Shown one piece after another: positions 25,225 through 34,747 of a stretch of DNA of 43,895 nucleotides; position 1 is the stretch's first letter, and the number at the start of each line of letters is the position of its first letter. The notes below the pieces were generated by a model that saw nothing but the letters and a program-made list of their open reading frames with translations, did no database searches and was not told the origin of the DNA. Origin of the DNA: a virus (taxonomy: Duplodnaviria > Heunggongvirae > Uroviricota > Caudoviricetes); IMG/VR virus record IMGVR_UViG_2548876954_000009; one strand, given 5' to 3'. The position numbers and the translations under genes are program-made.

Positions 25225-25662
25225 TTATTTCAGGCATTGCGTCCTGATGTACTCCTGCAGGTAGTTAACCTGCGCGGTTATCCTGTCGATTCCACTTCGG
25301 AGACGGTAATAATTGAGTTCAGCATCTGCTGTAAGTCTTGGGCTTTCTCCATCGCCCATGCTGCTGGCTCCGGTCGTTGACTTTGCACAGGTGGCGGTGA
25401 CTTGCAGGCGCTTACGCCCAGCAGAAACATCAGCACGTAGACTTTCGATAGTCGCGTTAGCATCAGCAAGCTCCTTTGTGTATCTGGCATCGAGTTCTGC
25501 TACATCACGTTGACGCTTCTGCATGTCAGCGATGATGTACGTGGCTTTATCGCGCTGTTCTTTATAGGTAATGGCGTTATCACGGTAATGATTAACAGCC
25601 CATGACAGACAGACGATGATGCAGATAACCAGAGCGGAGATAATCGCGATTAATCTGTTCAT
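25225..25662 (-). CDS. Rz: i-spanin Rz
   Basis: [34 protein letters not shown]... lambda Rz-like TM anchor plus coiled coil; ATG overlaps endolysin stop (ATGA). Confidence 0.9.
25278..25463 (-). CDS. Rz1: o-spanin Rz1 (lipoprotein) embedded in +1 frame within Rz
   Basis: Signal peptide with lipobox LLGVSAC followed by Pro-rich mature region [14 protein letters not shown]; fully nested in Rz. Confidence 0.75.
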
Positions 25663-26156
25663 TGCTGCCCCCACAAACAGACTTCACGCTCAATCTCACG
25701 ACGAGTCATCAGGCCTTTCCATTGCTTACCGCCAGCGTATGTCCAGCGACGTAGTTGGTCACATGCGCCTTTGATATCCCCCTGGTTTATTTTGCGAAGA
25801 AGCGTCGATGTTCTGAAATTGCCAGCACCCACGTTGTAAACGAACGAGTAAAGAGCGCCGCGCGTTGTTTCCGGTATATCGACTTTAATGTACGGGTTAA
25901 TTTGTCTGGCGACCGTGGCAAGGTCTTTATTCAGGAGGGCTTTGCATTCTGCTTCGGTATACGTTTTACCGAGCATAATGTCTTTTCCGGTGTGCCCGTA
26001 ACATACAGTCCATACGCCAACGATATCTTTATATGGTATGTAGCTGACACCTTCCAGACCATCGTCACCACTCGGACCAGTGATGAGCACAGACGCTATG
26101 GCAACAGCCCCACCACCAATAGCAGCTGCAACAGCCTTGCGTAATGATGGCGACAT
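25659..26156 (-). CDS. R: SAR endolysin (phage 21 R-type lysozyme)
   Basis: N-terminal SAR domain [21 protein letters not shown]; catalytic-region sequence very close to recalled P21 R. Confidence 0.95.
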
Positions 26157-26371
26157 TATTCACCTCTCGCAGCCTTACGCTTATCTTCTTTAATCTTGAA
26201 ATAAAGGTTTGTCAGGTACGTCAGCAAGCCAAATACCAAGCTCCCCAGCACACCAATTGCAGCCCACTGTGACGGAGTTACTTTATCGAGTAACTGCAGT
26301 GCCCAGAAGCCGGCATTACCTGCCGATGTGCCATAGGCGACACCTGTTGTTAACTTATCCATTGATTTCAT
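26156..26371 (-). CDS. S: Pinholin S21 with dual start (antiholin S71 / holin S68)
   Basis: MKSMDK... dual start at Met1 and Met4, two TM segments, charged C-terminus; GGTGAGG RBS. Confidence 0.95.
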
Positions 26372-26592
26372 ATCCTCACCCCGATGTACACGGATGGTGC
26401 AATATGTTTGAAAAGATCGGAGTCTACGGGTTAGTTTTTACAGCAAACGTTGTTCTCAACGACGCTCAAAAAATAGAAGCTTAAAATAATGCGGTTAAAT
26501 ATTTTAAAAGAAAAACCATCTATTAAATAATAATGCGGGATATATTTTTCTATTTAGTGTACTATATACGGCTATTTATACAGGAAAAGCCT

Positions 26593-26763
26593 ATGTCAGA
26601 ACGTAAAAACTCAAAATCACGCCGTAATTATCTCGTTAAATGTTCCTGCCCAAACTGCACCCAAGAGTCAGAACACAGTTTTTCAAGAGTACAAAAAGGT
26701 GCCCTTTTGATCTGCCCTCATTGCAACAAAGTATTCCAGACAAATCTTAAAGCTGTAGCCTGA
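26593..26763 (+). CDS. YdfK/YnaE-family small zinc-ribbon protein (cold-shock associated moron)
   Basis: MSERKNSKSRRNYLVKCSCPNCTQESEHSFSRVQKGALLICPHCNKVF...; CxxC...CxxC; ATG 26593 with AGGA RBS. Confidence 0.65.
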   Translation: MSERKNSKSRRNYLVKCSCPNCTQESEHSFSRVQKGALLICPHCNKVFQTNLKAVA

Positions 26764-26811: not shown

Positions 26812-26834
26812 AAAAAACCCGCCTGAGCGGGTTT
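26812..26834 (-). terminator. Hairpin terminator (minus-strand T-tract) between ydfK-like and cspB-like genes
   Basis: Stem ACCCGC/GCGGGT with loop CTGA, flanked by A6 on plus strand. Confidence 0.4.
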
Positions 26835-27115
26835 GATATTGTGGTGCTTTTTGTGGGAGTCATCCACTTACGCACTTTGTTTTTCTATACCAGCAGTTAG
26901 CTTCTGCTGTAAAACTATTCATGCAGCAAACCTGCACTTCACCACGATGGTTAGCATACTTTTCCTGATTAAGATCTTGCCAAATATGCTTGCCATTATT
27001 TCATGCATTGAACATCCTTACTTTTTATTAAAGATATCCAATATTCGCCACTCTGTCTGTATCTCCACTCAGGCATCAGCCTTCTTCGTTATCGTATACA
27101 GACGAGCTATGAATT

Positions 27116-27331
27116 TTAATCAGTAATAATGACATTTGCTGCTGCAGGACCTTTAGCACCACTCTCTATAGAGAAGATAACCTTTTGACCTTCAAATAAG
27201 GTTCGATAATTATCATTCTGAATTGCAGAAAAATGCACAAACACATCTTTACTACCATCAACAGGAGAAATAAAGCCAAAACCTTTATCAGCGTTAAACC
27301 ATTTTACTAAACCAGTCATTTTATTTGACAT
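27116..27331 (-). CDS. cspB: Cold shock protein, CspB/CspI-like
   Basis: [23 protein letters not shown]... with RNP motifs; 71 aa. Confidence 0.9.
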
Positions 27332-27631
27332 TCTACATTCCTTAACTTGAGCCTTTCGGCATAAATGATTTGTATAACAGAAACGACTTCGTACTTAATT
27401 GGAGAGACTCAAAGAAGGAATAAGTGAATAACACCTGAAATGAGAACTGCTTTAGTAAACTACTTCGTATATCGTCTGTTCTTCAAACCGACGCAATCAT
27501 TAACGCATAGTTGAACATATGAAGCAATGTTTATTTTAGACATCCAGCCATCTTCAACCCCATCAAAAAACTATAGCTTTCTTCAGGAAGGTGTGTATAG
27601 TGCGCCCAGTTATCAGTATTAAGGAATTTTT

Positions 27632-27844
27632 TTGTCCCGTAAAATGACAGGAATTGTCAAAACCTTTGACGGCAAAAGCGGCAAGGGTCTTATCACCCCA
27701 TCCGATGGTCGTATCGATGTCCAGCTTCATGTTTCAGCGCTCAATCTCCGCGATGCAGAAGAAATTGCCACCGGATTACGCGTGGAATTTTGCCGGATAA
27801 ATGGTCTGCGTGGCCCTTCAGCTGCCAATGTTTACCTTTCATGA
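27632..27844 (+). CDS. cspF: Cold shock-like protein, CspF/CspH-like (TTG start in ORF track)
   Basis: [26 protein letters not shown]...[13 protein letters not shown]; 70 aa. Confidence 0.8.
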
Positions 27845-27898: not shown

Positions 27899-27988
27899 AT
27901 GAATAACCCCGTCTGTCTTGATGACTGGTTGATTGGCTTTAAAAGCTTATGCTGTACTTTGACCGTAATAGCTCTGCTAATAATGTAA
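27899..27988 (+). CDS. Small hydrophobic ORF (29 aa) with strong RBS, unknown function
   Basis: GGAGAG 6 nt upstream of ATG; [29 protein letters not shown]. Confidence 0.3.
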
Positions 27989-28130
27989 TAAGCAGACTCA
28001 TTGTATCTAGGGACATTGTACTGGAAGAAAACATTTTAAACATCAGGCAGAAAACAAAGTCACCCGATAAATAATAAGTAAACAAACATGAATCCCGAAA
28101 TGAGATTCAACATCTCTATTACCCTATTTA

Positions 28131-28158
28131 AAGCACAAAAACCCGCTCATCAGCGGGT
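28131..28158 (-). terminator. Putative tR' terminator of the Q-dependent late transcript
   Basis: Stem ACCCGC/GCGGGT, 6-nt loop, T-tract on minus strand, about 50 nt downstream of predicted PR' start. Confidence 0.55.
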
Positions 28159-28206
28159 TTTCTACTTTTTCTTAACGTCGGGTATACAAAGCCCATCGTT
28201 GAAAAA

Positions 28207-28235
28207 ATTTTATCCATATTTTTTGAAAAATGCAA
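28207..28235 (-). promoter_or_regulatory. Putative late promoter PR' (TTGCAT-N17-TAAAAT) immediately downstream of Q
   Basis: Minus-strand -35 TTGCAT (28235..28230), 17-nt spacer, -10 TAAAAT (28212..28207). Confidence 0.5.
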
Positions 28236-28266
28236 GCATTACGTCGCCATCTTCGGCGAAAATCAT

Positions 28267-29019
28267 TTATCTCGTCACTTTTCTTAATTGCACCTCAGCA
28301 TATGCTTCTTCCTGCCAGCACTTTGTAACCAGTTTATCAATGACATCTGCATATCCTTTGTACCACTGATAATCCGTCAGGTCTGGTACCAGCTTCTTGA
28401 CATGAAGCCGCGCCAGTGTGGTTGGTAAACGGCTAAACCGGTTTCCATTGCAACGCCCACAAATCTTATAAACAGGCGTGCCATGAAGCCGGGTTCTTTT
28501 TTCATCCAGGACAATACCTTTACCCTTACACCCTCTGCACGCTGTGCTGACTTCTCCCTTACCATGACAATACTGACATAGTTCCTTCACCCACTCTTCC
28601 TTGATAACAGACTCCCCGCTTCTGGAGTGTTTCACCACTTCGCGCAATACATTATGAAATCCAGTACCAGAACAACGCTCACAGCGAGCCTTACTTGCCG
28701 CAGACCTGGAATAATCAGCAAAGGCAAAATTCACAAGGTAAGGAATGATCTGTAGCCGGGTTTCTTCACTCAATTTATTCAATGTCGGGTTATCCAGTGC
28801 CATCGCGTAATTGAGCAGACCTTCAATCGCAAACTGAGGATCCTGAACACCAACTTTTGCCAGGAATAAGGCAAACCCAAGCGGTGCTTTCGACTGCACC
28901 ATCCCCTGCGCAGCCATTACATCCGTAATTGTTAAACCACCAGAGCCTGTCGCCGGTGCGTCATCGCTCAATTTTGGAGATTTTGGGGAGTAATATTTTG
29001 GTAAGGCTTCAAGGTTCAT
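28267..29019 (-). CDS. Q: Late gene antiterminator Q (QuuQ-like)
   Basis: 250 aa with multiple CxxC zinc-finger pairs (CERCSGTG, CQYCHGKG, CRGCKGKG, CGRCNGNR); upstream of lysis cassette. Confidence 0.8.
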   Translation of the reverse strand: MNLEALPKYYSPKSPKLSDDAPATGSGGLTITDVMAAQGMVQSKAPLGFALFLAKVGVQDPQFAIEGLLNYAMALDNPTLNKLSEETRLQIIPYLVNFAFADYSRSAASKARCERCSGTGFHNVLREVVKHSRSGESVIKEEWVKELCQYCHGKGEVSTACRGCKGKGIVLDEKRTRLHGTPVYKICGRCNGNRFSRLPTTLARLHVKKLVPDLTDYQWYKGYADVIDKLVTKCWQEEAYAEVQLRKVTR

Positions 29020-33918: not shown

Positions 33919-34747
33919 GACGATGCCCTCCGCGGATATTCAGGAGACGGTGAATATGAAAATTAGCCTTATCCGCCAGACGAATACGTTCAGCTTGCAA
34001 GTTAAGAAGGGTTTCTACCAGAACCTGATGCGCCTGCGGATCCGAAAGAGTTACCTTGCGCAGAGCACGTAGTGCAGTCGTTACATAACTGAGTTTATGT
34101 AAGTCTTCATCATTCAGACGAGTGAGGGCTGGGACAGTAGCCATGATGGCAGCCTCCTTGATCGGTGAAATACTTCCACCACCGGAAACGCCAATTTCGC
34201 TGGTGGTGAACTGAACGGGGTTGGCGTAACCGGTGATCAAGGAAACCGGCGCATCTTTCGATGCCCCCGCCCAGCCCACCATAACTTTGATGTGAGCAAA
34301 TGCGGACGATAAAAAAGACGCTGGCGCGTCATATATCGCCTTGATCAATTCCAGGACGCCAATCCCGGCACCCGCTTTATAAGGTGCCTGAACAGTGTAA
34401 CGTCCCGGAATGGCAGAATCAATGTGCTGGTGGTCCTTCACACTCAACAAAATCACGCCTGAATTTCCACAAAGGACTAAAGCACTCATGCGGGTAGTCT
34501 TTGCGAAGATAGATAACGCGCTGTGTTTCTGGCTCCCAACGAATAACATGAACATAAAGTCCTCTTCCGTCACGAAACCAGCGGTTAAGTTCCTGCACAA
34601 CTCGCCCCCCACAGTCAGGTAAAGTTCTCTGTGGTTACTTACAGCCAGGTGATTTGGTAATCTGCATTCATGCCGTAACAACAGGTGTTCAGCGACGCTG
34701 ACCACCAGCTGTTGCGACAAACGGTTATTTGCCGTTAAACTGTTCAT
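33911..34747 (-). CDS. Hypothetical protein (278 aa) in early-right operon
   Basis: ATG overlaps upstream stop (ATGA); no recognisable motif, no Walker A. Confidence 0.4.
   Translation of the reverse strand: MNSLTANNRLSQQLVVSVAEHLLLRHECRLPNHLAVSNHRELYLTVGGELCRNLTAGFVTEEDFMFMLFVGSQKHSALSIFAKTTRMSALVLCGNSGVILLSVKDHQHIDSAIPGRYTVQAPYKAGAGIGVLELIKAIYDAPASFLSSAFAHIKVMVGWAGASKDAPVSLITGYANPVQFTTSEIGVSGGGSISPIKEAAIMATVPALTRLNDEDLHKLSYVTTALRALRKVTLSDPQAHQVLVETLLNLQAERIRLADKANFHIHRLLNIRGGHRHA

Follow-up and report, generated by a model that had tools for sequence, protein, structure and literature searches.

How is the late region of a lambdoid prophage switched on? In the general Q-lambda mechanism, a Q gene is followed by the late promoter PR', a sigma-dependent pause, a terminator and the late genes (PMC9388147). 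The cassettes of phages 21 and 82 are built from the same series of parts (Q gene, PR', sigma-dependent pause, terminator and late genes), and they are set apart by the Q protein itself: phage-82-type and phage-21-type Q form separate families, PF06323 and PF06530, respectively, and use other binding elements (PMC9388147). In lysogens, the Stx1 and Stx2a phages likewise transcribe from PR' constitutively as far as tR', and from this longer precursor a 74-nt Hfq-binding small RNA with shown targets, StxS, is cut (PMC7547250). Another closely related system is the Q/PR'/qut/tR' unit of lambda, in which an intrinsic terminator at about +194 lies ahead of the lysis genes and defines the 194-nt 6S RNA. 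Here we analyze a stretch of 43,895 nucleotides of tailed-phage DNA (IMG/VR virus record IMGVR_UViG_2548876954_000009; hereafter the window), the minus strand of which is the direction of the phage late genes. We propose that positions 28235..28131 on this strand are very probably a lambdoid prophage's cassette for late regulation and that this cassette is of the Q-lambda type. A preliminary description of this locus had claimed a Q-antiterminated PR'/tR' unit directly after Q, and the claim is strongly supported by homology to lambda PR' that includes the pause element, by conservation and covariation among relatives, and by an RNA 3' end mapped in the Escherichia coli K-12 copy of the locus.

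The Q Protein and the Late Promoter

The open reading frame at 28267..29019 on the minus strand encodes a Q antiterminator of 250 aa. It matches the Pfam Q-lambda family (Antiterm, PF03589) with E = 7.7e-54 and 180 bits, against a cut-off of 26.7, and it aligns with the lambda Q of PDB entry 7ubm (E = 2e-37) in two blocks, one on either side of an insertion of approximately 39 aa. Assignment of this 250-aa protein to the phage-82 or the phage-21 type is rejected on these two matches. Identity with the lambda Q protein is only 34.5%. The insertion, which spans Q residues ~121–159 and is absent from lambda Q, brings a second pair of CxxC motifs, for a total of four, and shows a weak match to the DnaJ CXXCXGXG motif. 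Because it carries this second CxxC pair, the DNA-binding "arm" of the window Q is probably a two-zinc module, as opposed to the single zinc ribbon of lambda.

Read along the minus strand, the region from the Q stop codon to the end of the unit is TAA ATGATTTTCGCCGAAGATGGCGACGTAATGC TTGCAT TTTTCAAAAAATATGGA TAAAAT TTTTTC AACGATGGGCTTTGTATACCCGACGTTAAGAAAAAGTAG AAAACCCGC TGATGA GCGGGTTTT TGTGCTTT. After the stop codon (28269..28267) there are 31 nt, and then the −35 hexamer of PR' begins (TTGCAT, 28235..28230), which agrees with the consensus at 3/6 positions and with the lambda hexamer TTGACT at 4/6. It is followed by a 17-bp spacer, TTTTCAAAAAATATGGA (28213..28229), and by the −10 hexamer TAAAAT (28212..28207), which agrees with the consensus at 5/6 positions. 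Downstream, at 28192..28200, AACGAT is followed by GGG; this is the same 9-mer, AACGATGGG, that lambda PR' carries at +1..+9, and it lies at the lambda distance from the −10 hexamer. The preliminary description spoke of a good sigma-70 promoter. TTGCAT-N17-TAAAAT is indeed present just downstream of Q, but "good" is an overstatement: the consensus total is 8/12, which is below the threshold of our consensus scan, so that the site is not listed there. That scan returned 6 promoter-like sites in the region, compared with 8.7 expected from shuffled sequence, and hence no excess.

At the level of sequence comparison, it is the homology to lambda PR' and not the match to the promoter consensus that raises the site above chance. 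Lambda PR' reads TTGACT-TATTGAATAAAATTGGG-TAAATT-TGACTC-AACGATGGG, and the window reads TTGCAT-TTTTCAAAAAATATGGA-TAAAAT-TTTTTC-AACGATGGG. From −35 to +9 the two are identical at 32/44 positions, with 11/17 identities in the spacer, and the spacings are equal (a 17-bp spacer and 6 nt from −10 to +1); the −35 hexamer is weaker than that of lambda. An ungapped comparison of the lambda PR' 44-mer with every position of the whole window, on either strand, gave its best match at 28235..28192 with 32/44 identities; the runner-up scored 25 and the background 11.0 +/- 2.9, placing the top match 7 standard deviations above background. Similarly, TAAAAT-N6-AACGATGGG with at most two mismatches occurs once in the window, compared with 0.11 occurrences expected. 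The DNA beyond +9 has no similarity to lambda, and the agreement of the promoter segment also stands in contrast to the 34.5% identity of the two Q proteins.

In lambda, the first A of AACGAT is +1, and AACGAT itself is the −10-like sigma70-dependent pause element (SDPE), where the complex is retained by sigma70 early in elongation so that Q can load. The lambda Q-binding element (QBE) is located between the −35 and −10 hexamers. By analogy, transcription from the window promoter is predicted to start at the A at 28200, and polymerase is predicted to pause at AACGAT. The spacer, which occupies the position of the lambda QBE, would be the candidate binding element for the window Q, with the stretch TTCAAAAAAT forming part of this candidate region between the hexamers. 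Finally, a small hairpin between the Q stop and the −35 hexamer (TCGCC-GAAGAT-GGCGA, 28244..28257, minus strand) was considered as a conserved structure but is not supported as such, since it is 79% paired among close relatives and many cells of the alignment are disrupted; lambda has a hairpin, TTGCCA-CGGA-TGGCAA, at the matching place.

The Terminator and the Predicted Short RNA

The intrinsic terminator tR' occupies 28131..28161 on the minus strand, between PR' and the late genes. Its hairpin, AAAACCCGC-TGATGA-GCGGGTTTT (28161..28138), begins 45 nt past the −10 hexamer and consists of a stem formed by 28161..28153 and 28146..28138 and a TGATGA loop; it is followed by TGTGCTT at 28137..28131, which gives the RNA a U-G-U-G-C-U-U tail. 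Minus-strand RNA spanning 28175..28125 folds with −21.3 kcal/mol (z = −5.96), and not one of 200 shuffled sequences is as stable. A strong hairpin with a T-tract within about 50 nt of the promoter had been described here before, and it stands with its coordinates unchanged.

An RNA that starts at 28200 and ends at this hairpin would be approximately 67–68 nt in length (28133..28200, minus strand), its 5' end being placed by lambda and its 3' end by K-12 Term-seq data. It is predicted to be constitutively terminated and to be the counterpart of the lambda 6S RNA. The terminator of the window, at +40..+67, is nearer to its promoter than that of lambda by about 130 nt. The predicted RNA from 28200 to 28131 (70 nt) folds with −26.2 kcal/mol (z = −5.2), and in this fold the pause element pairs with a downstream complement to form a 5' stem-loop at +1..+27 (28174..28200). 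Across 23 relatives, 98.4% of the cells in this stem-loop are paired and one pair shows compensatory change; the structure may stabilize the RNA. The AACG(A) of the pause element invariably forms an inverted repeat with a (U)CGUU partner 15–20 nt downstream, and the pairing of the two gives the 5'-terminal stem-loop. Similar AACG/CGUU repeats were found by eye in lambda, SF6, YeP1 and a Klebsiella phage, apparently with a compensatory G:C swap in YeP1. An Rfam search with the short RNA returned no family at the gathering score, only weak, terminator-driven matches to leader families.

The hairpin also has features of a terminator in the opposite orientation. The plus-strand RNA folds with −14.4 kcal/mol (z = −5.4) and has a U-rich tail, and our terminator scan lists the tR' hairpin on the plus strand only. 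From this fold it is plausible that tR' is bidirectional and also terminates the convergent transcript of two downstream genes, cspF and ynfS, which are described below. Since the hairpin is a plausible plus-strand terminator, it would probably keep transcription of these moron genes from entering PR' and from running antisense into Q. In the lysogen, the cspF-ynfS transcript and the short PR' RNA would thus probably each stop at tR', which would keep the two apart. Approximately 30 nt past tR' there is a second, weak hairpin with a T-rich tail (28080..28109, minus strand; 8 pairs, 3 of them GC; −9.1 kcal/mol, z = −2.5), a candidate for a possible back-up terminator.

Conservation of the Unit among Relatives

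A scan of viral contigs yielded 80 loci with a Q that is 97–98% identical to that of the window; together with SfV, Ayreon, 2H10 and K-12, this gave 84 loci usable for clustering, all with a Q identity of at least 93%; 23 distinct versions were aligned. The cassette is present in 84/84 loci and is conserved up to the terminator. SfV, Ayreon, 2H10 and the Stx2c-converting phages, whose Q proteins are 97–98% identical to the window Q, have the same promoter, pause element and terminator position, and the existing annotations of SfV and Ayreon mark the equivalent hairpin as a terminator. In most relatives the −10 hexamer is TAAGAT and the U-tract is longer than in the window.

Within the promoter, the spacer is the best-conserved part, above either hexamer, with 11 invariant positions among the 23 versions. 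The hexamers vary: the −35 is TTGCAT, TTGCGT or TTGTGT, and the −10 is TAAAAT, TAAGAT, TTAGGAT or TAATAT. A conserved spacer between variable hexamers is as predicted for a protein-binding site that lies between them. The SDPE varies at its third position only (AACGAT, AAAGAT or AATGAT), and A2 and T6, the key positions of a −10 element, are invariant in all of the relatives examined. Similarly, 92% of cells in the terminator stem are paired, and compensatory changes are found at 4/9 pairs. Within the RNA, conservation among relatives is lowest from +28 to the terminator.

The two sides of the terminator behave differently. When the 84 loci were clustered by k-mers, the promoter part formed one main group (76/84), whereas the 105 nt past the terminator fell into 16 unrelated groups; the cassette is thus followed by no fewer than 15 unrelated modules. 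The Stx2c-converting phages provide a clear example: they share with the window the entire early region, Q, PR' and tR', at about 96% identity from the integrase-side region onward and through position 28138, and they diverge at 28137, the first base past the stem. Behind tR' they carry a lipoprotein gene, a DNA methylase, tRNA-Met, tRNA-Arg and stx2A. SfV and Ayreon, too, differ from the window in their cargo from the first base past the hairpin, while 2H10 resembles the window in having cspF and cspB downstream. Taken together, the single main promoter cluster, the 16 downstream groups and the Stx2c divergence at 28137 indicate that Q-PR'-tR' behaves as one inherited module, and, as judged from these alignments, the terminator is the boundary at which late-region cargo is exchanged.

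The architecture extends to more distant phages of the Q-lambda family. In Salmonella SF6, in a Klebsiella phage and in Yersinia YeP1, the Q proteins of which are 36–42% identical to that of the window, a −10 hexamer is followed after 6–8 nt by AACGAT, AACGCT or AAGGAT and then by GGG. A close, GC-rich terminator is found in Yersinia phage YeP1, in a Klebsiella phage and in an Erwinia phage, and Salmonella SF6 has a long RNA resembling lambda 6S. Because distant phages also have close terminators, the compact unit is a common variant of the family and no peculiarity of the window.

The Qin Copy in E. coli K-12

In the cryptic K-12 prophage Qin, the genes ydfT/quuQ, ynfS, cspF, cspB, ynfU and essQ have the order and orientation of the window. 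The aligned region is 96% identical, and from the −35 hexamer to the terminator the only difference is one T fewer in the Qin T-tract. Qin is a defective remnant, whereas the window looks like a full-length lambdoid prophage that extends from the integrase-side early region to the terminase and portal genes. In the RefSeq record of K-12, the site is free of any annotated promoter, terminator or RNA.

Term-seq analysis of K-12 recorded, on the minus strand at 1642356, a 3' end classed as "orphan" and flanked by ...AAAACCCGCTGATGAGCGGGTTTTGTGC|TTT; the coordinate appears three times in a file that spans three growth conditions (Adams et al. 2021, PMC7815308, supplementary file 1). Transferred through the alignment, this 3' end maps 8 nt beyond the stem of tR'. 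Its presence implies an active promoter upstream, and the RNA would be 67 nt long if transcription began at a lambda-like +1 (K-12 1642422). The short transcript anticipated in the preliminary description therefore has a mapped 3' end in the K-12 copy, under all three conditions, while its 5' end is placed by homology. No plus-strand 3' end is listed at tR' in the K-12 Term-seq data, and the RNET-seq study of sigma70 pauses has no entry at this locus.

Genes between the Terminator and the Lysis Cassette

The first gene past tR' is ynfS (27899..27988, plus strand), which encodes 29 aa, matches PF23697 (E = 1e-21), is annotated in K-12 and is convergent with PR'. The YnfS protein has been detected experimentally in K-12 (PMC6001520). 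A further K-12 Term-seq minus-strand 3' end, at 1642188 (approximately window 27965), falls antisense inside ynfS (~27965..28005). It lies 9 nt past a hairpin, CTGCTTATTA(C/T)ATTATTAGCAG, which is itself placed antisense to the 3' part of the gene; the end could derive from read-through of tR' or from a separate antisense RNA to the small hydrophobic YnfS. Next is cspF (27632..27844, plus strand; Pfam CSD), annotated as such in K-12 and in other E. coli and likewise antisense to the late transcript. In contrast, cspB is co-directional with the late transcript. Its coding sequence (27116..27331; Pfam CSD, K-12 and E. coli annotation) is accompanied by a complete cspA-type 5' untranslated region (UTR) thermoregulator (Rfam RF01766, 157 bits), and together they span 27074..27492 on the minus strand. 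K-12 Term-seq has a very abundant 3' end past cspB (1641224/6) and another, on the minus strand at 1641634, within the cspB 5' UTR (approximately window 27410); this pattern suggests that transcripts are terminated early or processed within the cspA-type leader.

Between cspB and ynfU, the scan finds a strong bidirectional terminator (26815..26834, minus strand; −14.6 kcal/mol, z = −5.4), and the late transcript must also pass this terminator, in the direction 26834..26815. The gene ynfU (26593..26763, plus strand) encodes a 56-aa zinc-ribbon protein (PF23499) that is 100% identical to K-12 YnfU, and it is antisense to the late transcript. The mechanical open reading frame here is longer (26533..26763, plus strand, 76 aa); conserved YnfU starts at 26593, and the first 20 codons of the longer frame are probably untranslated. 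The late transcript then reaches the genes for a class II holin (26156..26371, minus strand; PF04971) and a lysozyme-type endolysin (25659..26156, minus strand; PF00959). The lysis and morphogenesis genes downstream of the cassette are all on the same strand, with terminase and portal genes, identified by phage similarity, further on.

Because cspF-ynfS and ynfU are on the plus strand, the late transcript crosses two convergent units. The path to the lysis cassette had previously been drawn as antisense over cspF, a 29-aa open reading frame and a ydfK-like gene. This is correct for cspF and for the 29-aa frame, which is ynfS; the supposed ydfK-like frame does not align to YdfK and is ynfU. Likewise, a late transcript running antisense through cold-shock morons describes cspF and leaves out cspB, which is transcribed in the late direction, as well as the second terminator. 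Moron genes in both orientations between tR' and the holin gene are a further difference from lambda. The same layout is also found in the isolated phages 2H10, PhiR42_1 and HannyBb and in 1410/5426 complete E. coli genomes (26%). Since it occurs in Qin, in isolated phages and in this many genomes, the layout is compatible with phage function. Elsewhere in the window, on the same strand and in the part of the early region that precedes the Q operon, Rfam identifies an adjacent pair comprising a C4 antisense RNA (34199..34286, minus strand, 82 bits) and the Hfq-binding RNA isrK (34311..34387, minus strand, 64 bits).

Discussion

We propose the following sequence of events at the cassette. RNA polymerase carrying sigma70 would initiate at PR', at A 28200. 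Sigma region 2 would then re-bind the −10-like AACGAT at +1..+6 and cause a pause in the initially transcribed region. When Q is absent, polymerase would escape from the pause and stop at tR', where the hairpin at +40..+63 would release an RNA of about 67 nt. Q, made after induction, would bind the conserved spacer, the candidate QBE, and load onto the paused complex. The modified, terminator-resistant polymerase is predicted to read through tR', antisense over ynfS and cspF and in the sense direction through cspB and its terminator, and then antisense over ynfU and into the holin and endolysin genes.

Several observations weigh against this proposal. The promoter matches the consensus at only 8/12 positions, with a −35 of 3/6, and on its own is weak evidence. 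Most relatives have T17-G18, which together with G8 fits the elemental pause consensus, whereas the subgroup formed by the window, K-12 and 2H10 has T17-A18 and so lacks T-G at +17/+18; the pause may therefore differ here in its strength and in its exact position. The insertion places an extra CxxC pair in the DNA-binding arm of Q, so that the contacts with the spacer need not equal those of lambda Q and may depart from them. The U-tract of tR' is short and interrupted, with 5 U in the window and 4 U in K-12. Finally, with the 5' end of the RNA placed by homology, the K-12 3' end could in principle derive from transcripts begun further upstream.

Two explanations would dispense with a short PR' RNA altogether. 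If the promoter were a chance match, the hairpin would merely be the terminator of the convergent cspF-ynfS operon and there would be no dedicated PR'/tR' unit. The modest consensus score, the expression of ynfS in K-12, the well-folding plus-strand RNA with its U-rich tail and the listing of the hairpin on that strand by the terminator scan would all be accommodated. Yet in SfV, in Ayreon, in the Stx2c phages and ahead of at least 14 further downstream modules, the unit follows Q without cspF or ynfS. In addition, the resemblance to lambda PR' is specific, and the K-12 Term-seq end is on the minus strand, with none listed on the plus strand; we regard a chance promoter as extremely improbable. 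Alternatively, the minus-strand 3' end could belong to an early or Q message started upstream, in which case the hairpin would be the terminator of the Q operon. Such a message would fit an RNA whose 5' end is placed by homology. In uninduced K-12, however, the early operon of Qin should be repressed, and yet the 3' end is prominent under each of the three conditions; moreover, the conserved architecture of −10 hexamer and +1 pause element would have no role. The homologous unit of lambda yields the 6S RNA (PMC7547250). A Q operon terminator is thus improbable, and we favor termination of a short RNA that begins at PR'.

Two further possibilities would add to the PR'/tR' unit rather than replace it. 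The RNA of about 67 nt might, in addition to its role in cis, regulate in lysogens, either in trans, as StxS does, or as an antisense RNA that acts on the ynfS-cspF message by way of the shared bidirectional terminator. StxS is itself a short PR' RNA that binds Hfq and activates RpoS (PMC7547250). The window RNA, for its part, has an abundant 3' end in every K-12 condition, a conserved 5' stem-loop and an A-rich stretch, AAGAAAAAGUAGAAAA, directly ahead of the terminator. On the other hand, it lacks an Rfam match, it is least conserved precisely between +28 and the terminator, and its U-tail is short (4–5 U). A short U-tail is poor for Hfq binding. We consider a regulatory role unlikely, while noting that it is compatible with the proposed function in cis. 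The StxS cassette, for comparison, has a Q of a different type. Similarly, the convergence of the late transcript with the antisense morons cspF-ynfS and ynfU could produce meaningful interference that couples cold-shock or moron expression to the timing of lysis. Two convergent units do lie between PR' and the holin gene, and one K-12 minus-strand 3' end falls inside the ynfS antisense region. We found no functional evidence for such coupling, however, and Q-modified polymerase is processive over kilobases and ignores terminators and pauses (PMC9388147). The layout also persists in isolated phages and in 26% of complete E. coli genomes, the cold-inducible cspB with its thermoregulator runs in the late direction, and tR' separates both units in the lysogen. 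Interference of this kind therefore seems doubtful to us.

What does the cassette mean for this family of prophages? The mechanism is textbook, and there is nothing new in it mechanistically. The present allele, which is unannotated in K-12, seems to have escaped experimental dissection. For annotation, the analysis helps by fixing to the base where the late promoter, the pause site and the terminator lie in a Q allele that is very common among E. coli prophages. The same Q allele is found in K-12 Qin, in SfV and in the Stx2c-converting phages, where the cassette sits upstream of stx2c, and an "orphan" 3' end in the K-12 Term-seq data is explained. If the short RNA did act as a regulator, unlikely as we consider this, roughly one E. 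coli genome in four, that of K-12 among them, would carry a regulatory RNA at this site, and its 5' stem-loop would stabilize it. Finally, the terminator hairpin can be viewed as a recombination boundary, beyond which late cargo as different as cold-shock genes, toxin genes and methylases is swapped behind one inherited Q-PR'-tR' module.

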